Source: Alphaproteobacteria bacterium
Lineage (GTDB): Bacteria > Pseudomonadota > Alphaproteobacteria > UBA2966
Length of the DNA: 64,000 nucleotides
Direction of reading: 5' to 3'
Assembly (NCBI GenBank): GCA_964291395.2
Contig: OZ219858.1
Coordinates: forward strand, 992,001-1,056,000
Shown here in pieces: positions 54,734-64,000 of the stretch (the first letter of the stretch is position 1; each line of letters starts with the position of its first letter). Below the pieces are notes generated by a model, which made no database searches, was not told the DNA's origin, and saw only the letters and a list, made by a program, of their open reading frames with translations. The position numbers and the translations under genes are program-made.

Positions 54734-55366
54734 ATGGCCGCCAATCTGAACGTCAGCATGGAAGCCTGGAACGACGGCGAGCCCATCCCGGAAGAGTACG
54801 CATTTTGCGTGCCTGCCGACGAAGGCCACGTCACCATGGGCGCCAACCTGAGCCCGGCGATGCGCTGGTCGGGCGCACCCGACGATACCAAGTCGTACGC
54901 CATCATCTGCAACGATCCTGACGTTCCCTCCGTCGCCGACGACGTCAATCAGGAGGGCAAGATCATCCCGGCCGACTTGCCTCGGGTCGATTTCTGCCAT
55001 TGGGTGCTTGTCGACGTGCCCGCCGACGTCACGTCGCTGGACAAAGGTGCGGAGTCCGGGGGCGTCGCGCCCGGGGGTAAACCCCACGGGCCAACGGACC
55101 ATGGCGTTCGCGGAATCAACCGCTACACGGAATGGTTCGAGGGCGACGAGCAGATGGCGGGTAGCTACGGGGGGTACGACGGTCCCTGCCCGCCCTGGAA
55201 CGACACCATCCTGCACCACTACGTCTTCACGGTGTATGCCCTTGATGTCGAAAGCCTCGGCTTGAGTGGGACCTTTAGCTGCAAGGAGGCACTCGAGGCG
55301 ATGGAAGGGCATGTCCTGGCGGAAGGGTCCTGTACCGGGACTTACACCCTCAATCCCGATTTGTGA
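54734..55366 (+). CDS. YbhB/YbcL (PEBP, Raf kinase inhibitor-like) protein
   Basis: DPDVP, HWVLVD, YDGPCPP, HHYVFTVYALD. Confidence 0.93.
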   Translation: MAANLNVSMEAWNDGEPIPEEYAFCVPADEGHVTMGANLSPAMRWSGAPDDTKSYAIICNDPDVPSVADDVNQEGKIIPADLPRVDFCHWVLVDVPADVTSLDKGAESGGVAPGGKPHGPTDHGVRGINRYTEWFEGDEQMAGSYGGYDGPCPPWNDTILHHYVFTVYALDVESLGLSGTFSCKEALEAMEGHVLAEGSCTGTYTLNPDL

Positions 55367-55445: not shown

Positions 55446-56300
55446 TCAGGCGGCGATGATCGCGGCTCCGGTCACTTGGGTCCGGTGCATCGTGCGGCGT
55501 GAGTCCGCGGGAAACGCGTTTCGACGGTGCATGACACAGCGATTGTCCCAAATGATCAGGTCACCCGTCCGCCACTCATGGGTCCACACGTACTTCCGTT
55601 GGGTGGCATGTGCCCAAAGCGCATCGAGGAGCTTCTCGCTTTCCTCCGCGTCCATGCCAACGATGTATTGCTTGGGGCGGCGCCCCAAATAGAGAACCGG
55701 CCGGTCAGTGTCGGGATGACGGCGCATCAGCGGATGGCGCGCGTGCGGTGACTCTGTTCGCACCCCCGCCACCTCCACCGAACGTTGCGGGGCGCCGGCG
55801 CTGTCATAGGTGCCATCCTGGTGCGCCGATTTGCCTGCGATCGCCGACCGCAAATGCTCGGGCAGCTCCGACGTCGCCGAGTACATATTGCAGAATTCGG
55901 TCTCGCCGCCCTCTGACGACACTTCCAGGGCATGGAGAATGCTGGCCTTGGGTGGCACGGGGTGGTTGGACATGTCCGTATGCCAGCGCAGCTCTCCGTC
56001 GCCCAGGCTACCCATCGGCTCGCCGTCGACGATGACGTTGGAAACGATGATGAGTTCCGGATGTTCCGCCGAGTACTGCTTTCCCGTCGCATTGGGGGGA
56101 CAAAGATCCAAGTCGCCGAAGTAACGGCTGAAACTGATCAGTTCCGGGTCGGAGATGAACTGGTTGCGGAAAAGCAAGACCAGGTGTTCGGACCAGGCGT
56201 CCATGATTGTCCCGGCGTCCGCCGGGTCGAGCGCTTGAGAGAGATCCGCGCCGCGAATCTCGGCTCCCAGTGCCTTGCCGGTGGGAATCACTTCGATCAT
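55446..56300 (-). CDS. TauD/TfdA family 2-oxoglutarate dioxygenase
   Basis: WHTD, GGETEF, WDNRCVMHR. Confidence 0.93.
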   Translation of the reverse strand: MIEVIPTGKALGAEIRGADLSQALDPADAGTIMDAWSEHLVLLFRNQFISDPELISFSRYFGDLDLCPPNATGKQYSAEHPELIIVSNVIVDGEPMGSLGDGELRWHTDMSNHPVPPKASILHALEVSSEGGETEFCNMYSATSELPEHLRSAIAGKSAHQDGTYDSAGAPQRSVEVAGVRTESPHARHPLMRRHPDTDRPVLYLGRRPKQYIVGMDAEESEKLLDALWAHATQRKYVWTHEWRTGDLIIWDNRCVMHRRNAFPADSRRTMHRTQVTGAAIIAA

Positions 56301-56415: not shown

Positions 56416-57948
56416 TCACTGGCCTACGCTTCGCGCAACGCGGAACCCGAAATTGTAATTGCGGTACTCCAGGATGTACCGGGCTCGCTTGGCGGATCGG
56501 ACATTCTTCGGATGGCTCCCCCAGGCACCGCCTCGCATCACGCGGCGCCCGCAGTTTCCGCTCAACCAGGGCGAACCGTCCCGGGGCGCGCCCCGATAGC
56601 TGTCGTTCCAGCAGTCTTCGACCCATTCCCAGACGTTTCCATGAACGTCGTGCAAACCGAATTCATTTGGTGCAAAGCTGCCGACGGGAAGCGTTCGCTT
56701 GCGGTACACGCCTCTCTCGCCTTCCCCATATGACGACGTCCCGTTGTAGTTCGCTTGGTCCGACGTGATTGTCTGGCCCACGTGGAATGGTGACCGCGTG
56801 CCCGCCCGGGCCGCGTATTCCCATTCCGCTTCGCTCGGCAGCCGATAGATCTGGCCGGTCTTCTCGCTAAGCCAAGCGGCGTACGCCTTCGCCGTGTTCC
56901 AGCTGATGCAGACGACGGGATCGTTCTCGCCCTGCGGATACCCGGGATCGCGCCAGCTCTTCGACGTGTCCAAGCGGCCGCCCGAGCCGACCCGCACGAA
57001 GCAGGAGCCTCCCCCTGCGTGTCCCGTTTCTTCGACGAAGGATGTGAATTCTCCTCGCGTCACCTCGAATCTGCCCATGGCGAACGAGGCCACCATGACT
57101 TCGTGCTTCGGTCCCTCCACGTCGTCCCGAAACGGCTCGTCCGGCGGCGAACCCATGACGAATGCGCCGCCCGGCACCACCACCATCTCCGGGCACACGT
57201 CGCAGTCTCTGAATGTCGTGCCGGGTGGCAGATCCGGCAACAGCAGCAGGAAGGTCCCGAGAGCGGCGAATACCAGGAGCGATATGCCCATCGCCACCAG
57301 CCGCCACCTCGGGAGACGGACAGGTCCCGTCGCCAGGGGGACAAGATCCCCCGTGCCTTGAAGCGCGCCGGTGGCCGGGGCGGTCACGGGTTCGAGCCCC
57401 ACGTGACGCAGGACTTCGTCGGCGTTGCGCACGCCCAGGATCCCTTCAACGCCGGCTATGCCGTGATCGGCGACGTCCTCCAGATTCGCTGCGGGAACGA
57501 CCAGCGTGACGGGAGATTTCTCCGCGACGCGGCCGGAAAAATGCTCGCGCGTCGCGTGAAGCTTCTCTCTCATGAAATCCGCTTTTCCCACCCGCAGATC
57601 AACGTCGACGGTTCCGGTGATCCACAGGGTTGCGCCTGCGTCCTCACCGGGTCCCGCAAGGCGACCCGCCCTATCCAACGCGTGCGCGACCAATACGGGC
57701 AGCTGCCAGGAATTGCCGTCGCCGATTTCGCCCGAGGCGTCCAACCGGAAGCCACCGGGCTCGAACGGGCCCAGGACCCGCTCGATCACACCCGAGGGTT
57801 GGCGAACGAAATCATCGTAATCGGAGCTGATGGGCAGAACCGATGTCGTCCGGCCCAGGCAAACCTGCGAAATGGGCGCCGCCTCGCGCGTGATCCGCTC
57901 GATCTGAACGGGCTCTTTCGTGGTTGCGGCGAAGACGTGAACCTTCAT
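56416..57948 (-). CDS. Lon-like (S16) protease domain + TM helix + formylglycine-generating-enzyme (SUMF1/C-lectin fold) domain
   Basis: FGE motifs RLPSEAEWEYAARAG, GNVWEW, GFRVAR are clear; N-domain has DGNS, ITG.V, REK, VVPAAN; hydrophobic segment at about aa 217-237. Confidence 0.8.
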   Translation of the reverse strand: MKVHVFAATTKEPVQIERITREAAPISQVCLGRTTSVLPISSDYDDFVRQPSGVIERVLGPFEPGGFRLDASGEIGDGNSWQLPVLVAHALDRAGRLAGPGEDAGATLWITGTVDVDLRVGKADFMREKLHATREHFSGRVAEKSPVTLVVPAANLEDVADHGIAGVEGILGVRNADEVLRHVGLEPVTAPATGALQGTGDLVPLATGPVRLPRWRLVAMGISLLVFAALGTFLLLLPDLPPGTTFRDCDVCPEMVVVPGGAFVMGSPPDEPFRDDVEGPKHEVMVASFAMGRFEVTRGEFTSFVEETGHAGGGSCFVRVGSGGRLDTSKSWRDPGYPQGENDPVVCISWNTAKAYAAWLSEKTGQIYRLPSEAEWEYAARAGTRSPFHVGQTITSDQANYNGTSSYGEGERGVYRKRTLPVGSFAPNEFGLHDVHGNVWEWVEDCWNDSYRGAPRDGSPWLSGNCGRRVMRGGAWGSHPKNVRSAKRARYILEYRNYNFGFRVARSVGQ

Positions 57949-58496
57949 CCGTCGATGAATATCTCGCTTCCGGGATCACGAAGCGCCGCCAGCACTTCCG
58001 AATCGTTTTCGACGAGAATTTGGATCAATCCGGCGTGGGGTTCCGGCAGCGCAACCCGTCGGCACGTATTGTCGCCGACGAACACCGCCAGCCATCTCGG
58101 ATGACGGCCCGGATCATCCAAGGAGATGATGATGTACGTCTGCGCCGGCTCGGCGCGTGATTCTTCAAAACGAATGCGGCAGCCGGGGGCCACGCGTTGC
58201 GCGACGCCTCCCGCGGCTGCGGCGGCGAGTTCGGGGATATGATAGCAGGCAATCTTTTCGGTGAGGCGCCGCAATTCGGCGCGAAGTGCGGAACTTTCCC
58301 GAAGTGCGGTCTCGAGGTTCGGGTCTCTTGGGCGCGCCTCGGTAACGTAAACGTAGAGACGCCGCAGCGTGACGTGCTCACCGAACTCCATTCCATCGAT
58401 CGAGACGCCCAGCGCCGCTTCCGTCGCAAGCACGTCGAATGTCCGCTCGGCAACCGCAAGAGTGTCATCGTCGGGTAGCTCAAACCGTTCGCTCAT
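57945..58496 (-). CDS. Hypothetical protein, anti-sigma-factor-like
   Basis: ATGA overlaps with both neighbours; LYVYV...LETALRESSALRAELRRL pattern; central LAAAAA. The gene is well supported, the function is inferred. Confidence 0.6.
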   Translation of the reverse strand: MSERFELPDDDTLAVAERTFDVLATEAALGVSIDGMEFGEHVTLRRLYVYVTEARPRDPNLETALRESSALRAELRRLTEKIACYHIPELAAAAAGGVAQRVAPGCRIRFEESRAEPAQTYIIISLDDPGRHPRWLAVFVGDNTCRRVALPEPHAGLIQILVENDSEVLAALRDPGSEIFIDG

Positions 58497-60004
58497 CGTT
58501 CGACCCCATAGATACGAGCAAACTGTTTGCTGAACACGTCATGATCGTATGCGAACTGATCGTCGAGATCAGTCCCTTCCTCCACCGATTGTTTCAATAC
58601 CCGCAGAAATGCATGGATTTGATCGCTAATCGCCGCCAGTGCTCCGGCACCGACTTCGTACACGACACCCGATCCGCGTTCACCCACGACCGCGTCCTCG
58701 AAGCCCCTGCGCGAGATTCCCGCAAAGGCCCGTTTCGCTACATCCCGCGCCTCCTCGAGCCGCTCGTCTTCGGACGCTCGTTCCGCAGCGTCATCCGCCT
58801 GGAGAGCCACGTGGAGCGCTGCCCGCAATGCGTTGTTCACGCGCTCGTCCAGCACGACGAGCCGGTCATGCCATTCCCGGTACGTCTCGGCGCCGGCGCA
58901 GGCGATGAGCTCGCTCAAGGTGTCGCCAGTATCCCGCCGCCTTGCAGCTTGTGAAAGCCGGGCCTGTACATCCCCGAAGACTTCGGCACGCAACAGAGAC
59001 CAGGGCAGCCGATGCACGCGCGGTCCGTGCTCCATCAGACGATCCAGAGCCGTCAGGTCCACCTTGTTCAGGAACCGAACGTTCTCGAAGGGCGGCTCTT
59101 GCAACGTCGAAAGCGGGGAGGTCCACAAGGCGGCTGCTTCCGCGTCATCCAGAAGTAGAGCAACGTCGACCTCACCCGCATCCCGATCGGAGCCGATTGA
59201 ACGGGCGCGTTCGACGGCCTCGCGGTCCGTCGCGATCTCGAGGGCCGAGAGGAAAGCCATGTAGGCGTCGAACACGCTCCGAAACAGACGGAAGTTTCCG
59301 GTTTCGCCGTTCAGAGATTTCTCCCGCCAGAACGCCAGGACGGTGGCGTCCTCGACGACCAGCGTTTTCGACTCCGACCTCGCGTAATCGAGCAGCTCCT
59401 GAAACTTGCCCTGCATCTGAACGCTTGGAAGGTGTTCCTTCAGGTACGCATACAGGCGCCGTTCGATTCCATTCGCTGCGCTCCGGACGCCGCGGTCCGT
59501 CATGGGTGGTTCCAGCATGGTGTGGAACTCATCGTCGACAGCGGCGTAACCGATGGTGCCGCAGAGAAATTCGAACAAGGCGGCGAGAACCGGCATTCCG
59601 GCAAATCCCACGTTGAAGACACCGTCGTCGTAGCGCACGGCAACGCCGTCTGCCGTCAGTTCGCATCCGGGACGCCGCCAACCCCGATTAGTCACGGCGT
59701 TCTGGATCCAGCCTCGGAATCCGGAACCGGTAGCACGTTCCGGTCCCAGCAACAAATGCTCGTAGGCGCCGCGGCGGGGCGCGCACGAGTCGGCCACGTT
59801 GATCAGGTGGCAAAGCTGCAGGACGGGTACCGCATAGGCGCGGCAGACGACGAGCCGGTTGAGACGACGGCACACCTTGGTGGGATAGTGGGCCGCACCG
59901 TCCGGGGTGGTGGAGTCCGCCACCGCTTGGAGGGCGGCTCGCAGCTCGCCACTCTGTCCCGCCTCCAGGACGAGGCTTGCCGCGCGTTCTATTTCGAGCG
60001 ACAT
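58493..60004 (-). CDS. Hypothetical protein (~503 aa), possibly a divergent sigma-factor-like protein
   Basis: Long ORF with AGGAGG RBS 7 nt before ATG 60004; function speculative. Confidence 0.6.
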   Translation of the reverse strand: MSLEIERAASLVLEAGQSGELRAALQAVADSTTPDGAAHYPTKVCRRLNRLVVCRAYAVPVLQLCHLINVADSCAPRRGAYEHLLLGPERATGSGFRGWIQNAVTNRGWRRPGCELTADGVAVRYDDGVFNVGFAGMPVLAALFEFLCGTIGYAAVDDEFHTMLEPPMTDRGVRSAANGIERRLYAYLKEHLPSVQMQGKFQELLDYARSESKTLVVEDATVLAFWREKSLNGETGNFRLFRSVFDAYMAFLSALEIATDREAVERARSIGSDRDAGEVDVALLLDDAEAAALWTSPLSTLQEPPFENVRFLNKVDLTALDRLMEHGPRVHRLPWSLLRAEVFGDVQARLSQAARRRDTGDTLSELIACAGAETYREWHDRLVVLDERVNNALRAALHVALQADDAAERASEDERLEEARDVAKRAFAGISRRGFEDAVVGERGSGVVYEVGAGALAAISDQIHAFLRVLKQSVEEGTDLDDQFAYDHDVFSKQFARIYGVER

Positions 60005-60245
60005 GTTCACGCCTCCTGCATGGTCAGATCACGTTCAACGCCGGTGGAATTCCTCCTGCCTGCTTTAGTCGGAGGCCGGCCTTCTTGGCAACAGCGGCAT
60101 CGAACTCACGGCCATGGGCCTGGGCGACGCCCCGCTCGGTGACATCCTGGCGCGCGTGGCGCGACTGCCGTGGGTGGGCTAATTTTCGCCATCGGGTGAC
60201 GGATCCGTACCCAATTCAAGCCCGAAAACATCGGAGGGAGCATCT

Positions 60246-60494: not shown

Positions 60495-60638
60495 CCCCCG
60501 ATCGTGCACGGCAGAGCTGGGCCTGCGGTCGTTGCCGACTGCCGAGGGTTTGTGGACAATGGTGTCGGTGCGGGCTAGAAGGGTGTCGCTGTTTCGGGGT
60601 GTCCGGGATGGTTGAGAGGATTTTGGAGGGGTGGAGCG

Positions 60639-60977
60639 ATGGATGTTGCGACGGAACGGCAGGACGACGTCTTGTCGGTCCTGGTGAGCGGTCGCATTGA
60701 CGGTTCCAATGCTGCGGCGTTCGAGGAGTCGGTTAGAGCGGCGATTTCGGACAGCGACCGAGCGGTGATCATGGACCTTGAGAAGCTTTCTTATATCAGC
60801 AGCGCGGGTCTTCGTGTTTTGCTGATGATTGCCAAGAATCTTTCGGGTCGGGACGCCAAGCTGGCGCTTTGCGCCATGTCGGATCAGATTCGGGAGGTTA
60901 TCGAGATAAGCGGTTTCGACAAGATCATCCCGGTTCACCCGTCCAAGGCCGAGGCGCTTGCGTCCCTGGACGGCTGA
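60639..60977 (+). CDS. STAS-domain anti-sigma factor antagonist (RsbV/SpoIIAA-like)
   Basis: GRID, DLEKLSYISSAGLRVLL, EISGF. Confidence 0.93.
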   Translation: MDVATERQDDVLSVLVSGRIDGSNAAAFEESVRAAISDSDRAVIMDLEKLSYISSAGLRVLLMIAKNLSGRDAKLALCAMSDQIREVIEISGFDKIIPVHPSKAEALASLDG

Positions 60978-61045: not shown

Positions 61046-61468
61046 ATGGTCGCTGAGGTGTCCTTGCGCATGGGGGCGGCCCGGGAGGAGCTTCCGCGCG
61101 TACACGCGGCGCTTGAGGCGTTTGCGCGGGATGAGGGCTGGCCTTCTCGGCTTGAGTTTCAGATCAAGCTGGTCATCGAGGAGGTGGTCATGAACATCCT
61201 GAGTCATGGGTACGAGGATGGCGGCGATCACGACATCCTGATCGAGCTTGCCTCGGATGCGGAGAAGATCGGCATCGAGATTGTCGACGACGGTCGCCCG
61301 TACGATCCTCTGACGGAGGCGCCGGCACCGGATACCGAGGCGTCTCTCGCGGACCGTCCCGTGGGCGGGCTAGGCGTGTATCTCGTATGCGCGTTGATGG
61401 ACGAGGCCAGCTATCGGCGGGAGGACAACCTCAACCGCCTCGCCCTTACCAAACAAAAACCCGCGTAA
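61046..61468 (+). CDS. RsbW/SpoIIAB-like anti-sigma kinase (HATPase)
   Basis: EEVVMNILSHG, DDGRPYDP, GGLGVYL. Confidence 0.92.
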   Translation: MVAEVSLRMGAAREELPRVHAALEAFARDEGWPSRLEFQIKLVIEEVVMNILSHGYEDGGDHDILIELASDAEKIGIEIVDDGRPYDPLTEAPAPDTEASLADRPVGGLGVYLVCALMDEASYRREDNLNRLALTKQKPA

Positions 61469-61630
61469 CCAGACGTTCAGGCCGGTTGCATCCGACAACA
61501 AACAGAAACGCAGACGGCGCATGCCGCAGCGAAGGTATGCTTAAATCCTCCGGTTAATGAATGTTTAGATGGAAACGGAGAGCGAACCGGCGTATACGCA
61601 TATCCCTCTTGCCGCATGAGGAGCAGTGTC

Positions 61631-63016
61631 ATGCCCGGGAAATGGACGCCGGATAGCTGGCGCGGCCTGCCGATTCGGCAGCAGCCGGATTATCCGGATG
61701 CTGCCGCGCTGGAGGAGGCCCTGGATCGGATACGACGGCAGCCGCCGCTCGTCTTCGCGGGCGAGGCGCGCCGGTTGCGTTCGGCGCTGGCGGGTGTGGC
61801 GGAGGGACGGGCCTTTCTGCTGCAGGGCGGCGACTGCGCCGAGAGCTTCGCCGAATTCAGCGCGGACAACATCCGCGACACGTTCCGGGTTTTGATGCAG
61901 ATGGCGGTCGTCATGACGTTCGCGGCGGCCTGCCCCATCATCAAGGTCGGGCGCTTGGCGGGTCAGTTCGCCAAGCCGCGCAGCGCGCCGACGGAGGTCC
62001 AGGACGACGTGGAGCTTCCGAGCTATCGCGGCGATATCGTGAACGGCATGGAGTTTACGGCCGAGGCTCGGGCGGCCAACCCTTCCAGGCTTCTTCAGGG
62101 CTACCACCAATCTTCCGCGACCTTGAATCTGTTGCGGGCGGTCGCGCACGGCGGCTATGCCGACCTTCGCCGCGTTCACGGCTGGAATCTGGATTTCGTT
62201 TCCCGCACCGCTCAGGGCGAGAGATACGCCGGCCTCGCCGACCGTATCACTGAGGCCCTGAGCTTCATGGAGGCATGTGGCATCACCGGTGAGTCCGTGC
62301 CGGCCGTAAGAGAGGTGGACTTCTATACCTCGCATGAGGCCTTGCTGCTCGGTTTCGAGGAGGCCATGACCCGCGTCGATTCGACGACGGGCGACTGGTA
62401 CGACACCTCGGCTCACATGCTGTGGATCGGCGACCGTACCCGTCAGGAAGATGGTGCCCACGTCGAGTTCATGCGCGGGGTCTCCAATCCCATCGGCATA
62501 AAGGCGGGTCCCACGATCGCCCCCGACGAACTGTTGCGGTTGATCGATATCCTCGACCCGGCCGTAGAGCCTGGCCGCCTCACGGTCATCGTGCGCATGG
62601 GCGCCGACAAGGTTGGTGAGCGTCTGCCACCGCTCGTTCGCGCGGTTCGGCGGGAGGGCCGCAAGGTCGTGTGGTCTTGCGATCCGATGCACGGCAATAC
62701 GGTGAAGTCGGCGAACGGTTACAAGACCAGGATGTTCGATCGGATTCTGTCGGAGGTCCGGCAATTCTTCGACGTCCACATTGCGGAGGGAACTTACGCC
62801 GGCGGTGTGCATTTCGAGATGACGGGCCAGGACGTTACGGAATGCCTCGGCGGCGCGCAGGACATCACCGAGCGCTCGCTCGCGGATCGTTACCACACCC
62901 ATTGCGACCCGCGCCTCAACGCATCTCAGGCACTGGAGCTGGCGTTTCTGATCGCCGACTCCCTGAAGGAACAGCGCGCCAACGGTCAGCCCCCGATCGC
63001 CGCCGAGGCGTCCTGA
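61631..63016 (+). CDS. Class II DAHP synthase
   Basis: [39 protein letters not shown]. Confidence 0.97.
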
Positions 63017-63228
63017 GTGTTGTTCCCGGCGCGAAACGACCGGCCGCGCACGGTGACTTATTAGGGCATGCCAGGCGCTTTCGGTTACGAGGTCTGCGGA
63101 CGGGCCGAACCCGATCCCTATGCAGTTCCCCGCACGGGTTTCGAAGAGGCCTTGGAGGCCTGCCGCGCCGGCCGCGACCCGCAGTGGGGATGATGGCGCC
63201 CGGAGTTGGCCGGCGTCAGCTCGAGGGA

Positions 63229-63696
63229 TCAGAACACCCCTGCTTCGAGGCCCGCAGCCACTGCCATTCCAAGCTCTTCGCATTGATCGACAAAGGTGTC
63301 CTGCCACTCTCCACGGCAGATCAACGGATCCTGGACGGCGCGCCATCTCAATCCCGTGACGATCGTTTCGACGCCCCGGCGCGTTCCAGTACCGTCCTGA
63401 CCCGCACGGATATAGAGGGCGTAGGGCAGCCCCTGAGTGTGTTCGAGGCAGGGATAGTAGCTTCGGTCGAAAAAATCCTTCAGCGCGCCGCTCATGTATC
63501 CAAGGTTCTCCGTCGTGCCGAGGATCACGGCCTGGGCCGCGAGGACATCGTCCGCCCCCGCTTGGAGAGGCGGGATCATCCGGACCGTCACGTTCCCGAT
63601 GTCGGGGTTCGTGGCGCCGCGTACCACCGCCTCTCTCAGCCGTTCCGTGTTGGGCGAGGGCGCATGGGCGACGATGAGCAAGCGGCGGAGGGTCAT
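63229..63696 (-). CDS. Flavodoxin family protein
   Basis: HAPSPNT, GTTENLGYMSGALKDFFDR, DGTGT. Confidence 0.88.
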   Translation of the reverse strand: MTLRRLLIVAHAPSPNTERLREAVVRGATNPDIGNVTVRMIPPLQAGADDVLAAQAVILGTTENLGYMSGALKDFFDRSYYPCLEHTQGLPYALYIRAGQDGTGTRRGVETIVTGLRWRAVQDPLICRGEWQDTFVDQCEELGMAVAAGLEAGVF

Positions 63697-63896
63697 GGAA
63701 GCGTGTCATCCTCTGGAACGATGCGGCCTCTACTCCGCCCGAATGAAATACCCACTCCGGACCCGTTTGGCGCCGTTGCCGGCCGCGAATGCTCCGGTCG
63801 GCACGAGCATTCCGACAAGCACTACGACAAGCCACGGCCCGACCGGTACACGAACCGTTTTCCCTTGTCTTCCGGTCCCCATTGATGCCGGCGCGG

Positions 63897-64000
63897 TCAC
63901 GCCATGCCCACGGGGGTCGGCTTGACCGCGATTTCATCATCCGGGCGAGAGGCGATCATGTCCTCCAATTCCTTGCGGACGGACCGGGCGCCGCCGTCGT
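63897..64000 (-). CDS. 3' end of an unidentified CDS entering from beyond the window
   Basis: Open frame ...RKELEDMIASRPDDEIAVKPTPVGMA-stop. Confidence 0.4.
   Translation of the reverse strand, partial: DGGARSVRKELEDMIASRPDDEIAVKPTPVGMA

Follow-up and report, generated by a model that had tools for sequence, protein, structure and literature searches.

A conserved Ala-Ala loop motif in a small protein encoded beside a membrane-anchored Lon-type protein points to a candidate proteolytic relay

The system formed by CalpL-CalpT-CalpS is the closest precedent that we recognize for the subject of this study, three adjacent genes (A, B and C) on the minus strand of a 64,000-nucleotide stretch from an Alphaproteobacteria bacterium (GenBank assembly GCA_964291395.2, contig OZ219858.1, positions 992,001 to 1,056,000). 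This whole stretch is referred to as the window, and coordinates are counted from its first letter. Gene B encodes a small protein with a run of alanines, and we propose that this protein could be the cytoplasmic adaptor and substrate in a three-gene proteolytic signalling module. In the CalpL preprint (bioRxiv 10.1101/2024.05.08.593097), CalpL is described as an N-terminal domain followed by a Lon domain (S154/K195) and a SAVED domain. According to the same preprint, CalpL cuts CalpT inside LAA↓A (the arrow marks the cut) and exposes the C-degron PEDTLQLAA, and the substitution A204D blocks release of the sigma factor. For the homologous Sulfurihydrogenibium proteins, as relayed in the preprints, the C-terminal fragment of CalpT is said to stay bound to CalpL, with the cleavage site opposite the active site (bioRxiv 10.1101/2024.05.08.593097). 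In an overlay of that preprint, which used the CalpL N-domain, the cut site comes close to the active site of the adjacent subunit in the filament, a position from which the cut would be made in trans. The same relay is summarised in the second preprint (10.1101/2024.05.08.593092), and the first one compares the degron logic of CalpT with that of RseA.

The parallels between A-B-C and the CalpL relay are close in both logic and site chemistry. Each is a relay of three genes built around a Lon-type Ser-Lys protease that lacks the ATPase and has an additional N-terminal domain; here the product of gene C would fill this role. CalpT is a two-domain partner, and its C-terminal domain stays on the protease at a distance from the catalytic dyad; for B, also of two domains, a comparable docking of the C-terminal domain on C is a prediction. 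An Ala-rich motif lies between the partner domains in both cases (LAA↓A in CalpT, [AVL]AAA[SA] in B). A third protein acts as the payload in the CalpL relay and a new C-terminal AA degron as the releasing step, and we propose the same for A-B-C. The presumed sensor of C differs in being a transmembrane helix plus a periplasmic domain, whereas that of CalpL is a cytoplasmic SAVED domain that binds cyclic tetra-adenylate (cA4). In the CalpL relay, which is associated with type III CRISPR, CalpT is a cleavable anti-sigma adaptor and CalpS an extracytoplasmic function (ECF) sigma factor; in contrast, gene A encodes a 505-aa (amino acid) protein without a known family.

The proposed pathway also resembles RseA/sigma-E and ssrA (VAA, LAA) in combining an envelope signal, a site-specific cut in a cytoplasmic inhibitor and a C-terminal x-A-A for ClpXP, as suggested for B. 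Position 90 of B is A, V or L and is followed by Ala-Ala, and the genome encodes ClpX (667.8 bits against a cut-off of 370.75). Unlike the RseA system, A-B-C has no DegS/RseP-type site-1/site-2 protease, no anti-sigma domain and no sigma factor, and the Lon-type domain would be carried by the receptor itself.

Gene B and the parts of its product that carry the argument are as follows.

57945..58496, minus strand: gene B, 183 aa, predicted cytoplasmic, proposed cleavable adaptor
58206..58235, minus strand: B residues 88-97, PELAAAAAGG, a loop and the proposed scissile region (from conservation and the structural model)
58218..58223, minus strand: codons of A92-A93, the near-invariant core, proposed as P2-P1 and as the future C-terminal AA (from the alignment)
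58236..58496, minus strand: B residues 1-87, helical half plus strand 83-87, which may hold the gene A product (from the model)
57948..58199, minus strand: B residues 100-183, beta domain with the predicted C-docking surface (111-123 and 151-163)

The open reading frame (ORF) of B is a real gene. ATGA overlaps occur at both of its junctions, A/B and B/C; thus, translational coupling of A, B and C is likely. An HMMER scan for relatives of B, covering 1.84 billion representatives (clusters at 50% identity), recovered 432 representatives at E<=1e-3, of which 254 reach E<=1e-10; almost all have a length of about 180 aa. Scans of B against Pfam (to E<=1), PADLOC and NCBIfam returned nothing, and the family profile had a single chance match among PDB sequences (E 1.3).

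The run of five alanines is by itself unremarkable. B consists of 13% Ala, about 0.006 such runs are expected per protein of this size, and a few dozen should occur by chance in a genome of ~4,000 proteins (the window has 65% G+C). Thus, any interest in the run must rest on its conservation and context. The sequence-only reading of this DNA had seen in the run a cryptic degron, an idea that presupposes conservation, and the family alignment bears this part out. Among 153 aligned sequences (the query and 152 of the 159 stored homologues, seven outside 165-200 aa having been left out), Ala occupies position 93 in 153/153, position 92 in 151/153 and position 91 in 112/153. Position 94 holds S in 115/153 and A in 31/153, position 95 is S or T in 124/153, G96 is Gly in 109/153, and R101 is Arg in every one of the 153. 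At position 90, 65 sequences have A, 43 have V and 33 have L. The motif columns together with R101 are the top-conserved columns of the family, and the Ala-Ala core (A92-A93) is its best-conserved feature. The poly-Ala run is the form that the family motif, P-x-[AVL]-A-A-A-[SA]-[ST]-G...R, takes in the window. In the 11 close relatives found by a word-indexed search LAAAA[AS]G is invariant, and AAA is invariant also in genus-level relatives at 35-39% identity. The homologue P0150 has a Gly/Ser-rich insert of ~20 residues directly after the motif, which fits a tolerant linker.

An AlphaFold2 model of B (m001bda04dc0c), built on a 62-sequence alignment, has a mean predicted local distance difference test score (pLDDT) of 90.4 and a predicted template modelling score (pTM) of 0.76. 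It replaced an earlier model from 11 close homologues that was poor (pLDDT 60.7) and whose Foldseek search was uninformative. Helices span residues 10-32, 44-52, 59-67 and 69-82, followed by a strand at 83-87 and a loop at 88-99, and residues 100-182 form seven strands and one short helix. The C-terminal half is therefore beta-rich, as had been read from the sequence. The Ala motif sits within the loop, with strand 83-87 before it and the remainder of the beta domain after it, and its block has a pLDDT of ~80. Conserved residues in the first 87 positions are mostly hydrophobic (F20, L29, L47, Y48, A64, L65, L71 and L78, plus D58), and S113, Q119, Y121, L150, P151, G156 and Q159 are near-invariant in the beta domain.

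Searches with this model against known structures did not place the fold. Foldseek gave no PDB match at E<=1e-3. With VIA-align, the best hit of a wide search had a Z of 4.3 and a root mean square deviation (rmsd) of 3.2 over 72 residues (CBM56), and that of a second look a Z of 4.3 and an rmsd of 3.4 over 97 residues (SPOP MATH domain); both values fall below the typical best Z of 7-8 in the background. Neither an anti-sigma factor nor a CalpT chain was among the rows shown, which mostly covered B 80-183 and barely sampled the helical half. Because the fold-search alignments span B 81-183, strand 83-87 appears to be part of the beta domain in the model. The two halves of a cut B may therefore stay together until an unfoldase separates them, as reported for CalpT.

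Directly downstream of B, gene C encodes a single-pass membrane protein, with the following features.

56416..57948, minus strand: gene C, 510 aa, single-pass membrane protein, proposed receptor-protease
57349..57948, minus strand: C residues 1-200, cytoplasmic, an N-subdomain (~1-70, predicted site of B docking) and a Lon-type core
57709-57711 and 57562-57564, minus strand: codons of S80 and K129, respectively, the catalytic candidates
57229..57297, minus strand: C residues 218-240, the single transmembrane helix (Kyte-Doolittle)
56431..57195, minus strand: C residues 252-506, periplasmic FGE-sulfatase/PvdO-like domain (PF03781), presumed sensor

The Lon-type core starts near residue 75, after a subdomain of ~70 residues, and there is no AAA+ module. 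In an alignment of 12 diverse C N-domains S80, W81, G112 and K129 are invariant; among 43 sequences S80 is found in 43/43 and K129 in at least 90%. When the 43-sequence profile was compared with the PDB (E<=10), 23 of its 24 matches were Lon proteases (best E 3.7e-4), and the alignment with Lon runs through MTGE...G.V.PIGG.KEKL..A...IP..N. The 12-sequence profile matched Lon in 22/22 cases (best E 0.019). CalpL was not among the PDB matches of these profiles. An hhalign comparison of the C N-domain with 12 LonA protease domains, taken from genomes of the same class, gave a probability of 81.6% and an E of 1.1e-5 across 95 columns. In this alignment S80 is paired with the DGPSAG Ser and K129 with the second Lys in KEKLL; in Lon from E. 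coli these correspond to the catalytic residues Ser679 and Lys722. The named clusters nearest to C in a protein atlas carry Lon_C.

The resemblance to Lon (MEROPS S16) thus extends along DGPSAG...MTGE...KEKLLAA...IP..N, with both catalytic residues kept. Unlike Lon, C lacks the AAA+ module, lies out of reach of Pfam Lon_C and has a transmembrane helix and a periplasmic domain fused to it. On these profile comparisons, C is best read as a putative ATPase-less Lon-type Ser-Lys protease tethered to a periplasmic domain. Pfam, PADLOC and NCBIfam have no family for its N-domain.

The Kyte-Doolittle profile of C (19-residue window) peaks at 2.44 at residue 218, and the helix is preceded directly by RLPRWR. 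Following the positive-inside rule, residues 1-215 are therefore placed in the cytoplasm and the FGE-sulfatase domain in the periplasm. This domain is a strong match to PF03781 (E 1.9e-64), and its closest solved relative is PvdO (5hha, E 4e-63). The extracytoplasmic part varies by lineage: it is an FGE-sulfatase domain here and DUF4384 in one Magnetospira protein, and in others it has no assigned domain. This swappable outer domain is the only Pfam/NCBIfam family found in A, B and C, and PADLOC returned nothing for any of the three.

By eye, we also noticed a C-x-x-C pair (DCDVC) directly outside the membrane helix of C (window 57160-57200, residues ~250-262). Among the homologues in loci L033, L035, L036 and L042, such pairs include the forms QCDVC, SCQSC and SCNGC, and many other homologues have a small periplasmic domain with a C...LCG pair instead, again judged by eye.

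A complex prediction for C(1-215) and B scored 0.86 (median of three runs) versus 0.00 for the best control. Of 157 solved complexes, 116 reach this mark, and of 215 mismatched pairs, 2 do; this calibration holds only roughly, since custom alignments went into the prediction. At least 97% of the contacts are common to the runs, and the partner pLDDT is at least 75. In the predicted interface, residues 111-123 and 151-163 of B lie against residues 18-49, 68 and 70 of C. These segments comprise the motifs SRAEP.Q.Y and LP..G.IQ.L in B and RITRE...LPIS..YD..VR in C, which are the most conserved motifs on both sides. The predicted contact fits the orientation of a natural fusion in one genome (P0139, 668 aa, L034:4540-6546, minus strand), in which the C-terminus of B is joined to the N-terminus of C. 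The fusion protein retains the AAA motif, and its periplasmic domain differs and has no assigned family. We consider it highly probable that B is a dedicated partner of C. A 668-aa frame around the B match in genome G269 was considered as a second fusion and rejected: it is no more than a frame left open in DNA rich in GC, where B and C are individual genes.

The third member of the module is gene A, upstream of B.

58493..60010, minus strand: gene A, 505 aa, predicted helical, no known family, candidate payload held by B

The listed GTG start yields 505 aa, and seven homologues at 77-98% identity have 503 aa; judged from these sequences, translation probably begins two codons downstream, at an ATG (MSLEIERA..., window 60004-60010), giving 503 aa. 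Gene A matches no Pfam, PADLOC or NCBIfam family, and its profile found no PDB relative at E<=10. All 28 of 28 homologues are unnamed or 'hypothetical'. An Ala-zipper match was discarded as chance-level (E 0.085, 13.4 bits against a cut-off of 43).

The three genes travel together. All-against-all clustering of 10 distant loci found a homologue of A and a homologue of B and of the C N-domain in 10/10, in the same order, and no fourth universally conserved gene appeared in the scan of these loci. Blastp with the window proteins over 15 loci recovered the C N-domain in 15/15, A in 14/15 and B in 10/15, with no shared gene beyond A, B and C; the weakest copies of B in the distant loci came from the family profile rather than from blastp. 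Gene B occurs in 12 of 13 genomes of the window's family and in 12 of 401 genomes sampled across the phylum (the window's own counted), and the module is therefore patchy in its distribution. A narrow peptide-pattern search yielded 7 loci, and the wider context was taken from the genome search. One metagenome-assembled genome holds what looks like a decayed copy (L019:3613-5758). There, the A sequence is divided between two ORFs, of which one continues into the C-terminal half of B, and the C N-domain matches over its first 68 residues only, in a 153-aa ORF.

Taken together, these features could be accommodated in the following scheme. The periplasmic domain of C, here FGE-sulfatase/PvdO-like, would be a swappable sensor, and its cytoplasmic, ATP-independent Lon domain the protease. 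B would be held on the N-terminal subdomain of C through its beta domain, as predicted. A periplasmic cue would activate the Lon domain, possibly through oligomerisation and trans cleavage as in CalpL, and the Lon domain would cut B in the loop with the A-A-[SA] core (here presumably ...PELAAA↓AAGG). The helical N-fragment would then end in -AA-COOH, a degron like those of ssrA, RseA and CalpT, and could be removed by ClpXP or a similar protease. Loss of this fragment would free the cargo of the helical half, most likely the product of gene A. We infer the cleavage of B, the position of the cut, the degron step and the role of A. That the Ala motif is a cleavage site in B is close to an even call, and that a degron step follows cleavage is somewhat doubtful. 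The idea of a cryptic cleavage site and degron is partly supported: it gains indirect support because the motif is conserved and lies in a linker loop, a Lon-type neighbour is predicted to bind B, and CalpT offers a precedent. As a whole, the chain from cue to release, with B as cleavable adaptor and substrate, is a tentative proposal whose likelihood we place somewhat below even.

Several points weigh against this proposal. Everything past gene linkage is computation or analogy. Pfam Lon_C misses the C N-domain and all 11 relatives tested, even at E<=10, and the Lon assignment comes from custom profiles with modest statistics. Both the Ala loop of B and S80/K129 of C lie outside the predicted B-C interface, and nothing brings the motif into the catalytic site. 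That small residues are almost invariant could just as well reflect tight packing or a pseudosubstrate loop. The MazF-like/DUF2080 domains of CalpT match 0/62 members of the B family at E<=1, and no test identifies the gene A product as a sigma factor, nor does it have Sigma70 domains. Finally, the module lies among envelope genes (SLT transglycosylases, lipoprotein) in 5-6 of the 10 distant loci, a setting more suggestive of a part in structure or assembly than of signalling.

The main rival explanation, which we regard as unlikely, takes B to be a stable regulatory or adaptor subunit of C that is not cut. The AAAS loop would then be a pseudosubstrate, inhibitory or structural, and the helical half could recruit the true substrate, for instance the gene A product. 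Docking through the beta domain only, with the Ala loop outside the interface, is in line with such a role, and the loop could be ordered, given the pLDDT of its block (~80) and the apparent inclusion of strand 83-87 in the beta domain. However, an invariant Ala-Ala preceded by A/V/L and followed by S/A matches a cut-and-expose C-degron and the CalpT site better than it matches packing. The natural B-C fusion is what a permanent subunit would lead one to expect, but it keeps the AAA motif, so cutting would still free the helical half.

It is improbable, in our judgement, that the module is part of an envelope-spanning machine in which B serves as assembly factor or chaperone for C and the conserved motifs serve assembly. 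This explanation draws on the SLT transglycosylases, transmembrane protein, lipoprotein and secreted proteins that flank A-B-C in the distant loci noted above. Yet A-B-C is intact in the window's genome (98.1% complete), where two queries from locus L014 did not find the flanking envelope genes. Moreover, the invariant Ser-Lys dyad of C argues for catalysis, and the swapping of its periplasmic domain between lineages is sensor-like.

The sequence-only reading had also assigned B an anti-sigma-domain pattern. The string that it quoted (HVTLRRLYVYV...LETALRESSALRAELRRL, ending LRAELRRL) is indeed present in the translation, at aa 41-78, and resembles anti-sigma helices locally (RLYxYxxG...AL...LRxxLxxL); the similarity goes no further and is not significant. 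Within these residues there is no Cys or His at the positions required by the H-x3-C-x2-C zinc motif. In hhalign, HVTLRRLYVYVTEAR of the B family was paired with HVSEDLLLEYAAGGL of three ChrR-like zf-HC2 domains over 15 columns, with a probability of 0.09% and an E of 0.6, against a thin template (three sequences from one genus). The nearest named cluster to B in the protein atlas has zf-HC2 in 15% of its members, at a score (0.79) that is 'often chance'. A zf-HC2-type domain in B found no profile match and no linked sigma factor: none of the 62 family members matches zf-HC2 or another anti-sigma Pfam family at E<=1, the zf-HC2 model (PF13490) has 0 matches in a six-frame search of the source genome, and the conserved module, in which only A, B and C recur in 10/10 of the distant loci clustered, contains no sigma factor gene. 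That B is a Cys-less zf-HC2-type anti-sigma factor, which binds up an ECF sigma factor and loses its activity through proteolysis, is thus very improbable, and we consider the anti-sigma reading weakly refuted.

Returning to the cleavable-adaptor proposal, we found no description of an A-B-C module in the literature searched. The broadest form of the proposal would make the module a widespread, non-CRISPR counterpart of the CalpL relay, with a one-protein transmembrane receptor-protease whose Lon domain is switched on by its periplasmic sensor (FGE-sulfatase-like, DUF4384 or others), a cut at an invariant AA↓S site of the dedicated adaptor, a ClpXP degron and release of a ~500-aa effector; we hold this form to be rather doubtful. 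If it were true, the module would represent a new envelope-to-cytoplasm signalling route, one that differs both from two-component systems and from regulated intramembrane proteolysis of the DegS/RseP type. Signalling across the membrane would then be achieved compactly by proteolysis, with an outer sensor driving an inner Lon-type protease that cuts an adaptor at Ala-Ala, and the logic of cutting to expose an AA degron, seen in RseA and CalpT, would extend to a new receptor class. It would also provide a handle on the ~500-aa gene A family, which has no known function. The cleavage prediction is sharp, since it names the site of the cut as well as the catalytic residues and the docking surface.

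The surroundings of the module differ between genomes. A larger cluster was seen in loci L014, L015, L033, L035, L036, L038 and L040 (e.g. L014:1554-3460 and L014:7634-10097). Upstream of A, it encodes a small transmembrane protein and either one or two lytic transglycosylases of the SLT type (E 1e-14 to 1e-22). Downstream of C follow a lipoprotein, two secreted proteins (one of ~300 aa with coiled coil, the other of ~135 aa) and a polytopic membrane protein of ~188 aa, the tail of which is MotA/TolQ/ExbB-like by eye. In the window itself, the downstream neighbours are a TauD/TfdA-family dioxygenase (55446-56300, minus strand; E 3e-66) and, at 54734-55366 on the plus strand, a PEBP-family protein (E 4e-38), which are kept only in the closest relative (L013) and not with the module. 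The ORF list and the Pfam assignments of six neighbours revealed no CRISPR gene in the 14 kb around the module, no Cas family having been searched as such.

On the other side, a STAS-domain protein (PF01740, E 5e-22) is encoded divergently at 60612-60977 (plus strand), ~600 bp upstream of gene A, beside a gene for an RsbW-like HATPase_c_2 protein (PF13581, E 3e-25) at 61046-61468 (plus strand). These two genes look like a partner-switching pair of anti-sigma antagonist and anti-sigma kinase, and they lie outside the conserved A-B-C module. A 791-aa ORF at 61565-63940 (minus strand) has no Pfam family at E<=1e-4. Elsewhere in the genome, the region G000:C1:1346801-1350469 covers the canonical clpX gene and, ~1.9 kb further along the same strand, the only Lon protease domain that Pfam detects in the genome.

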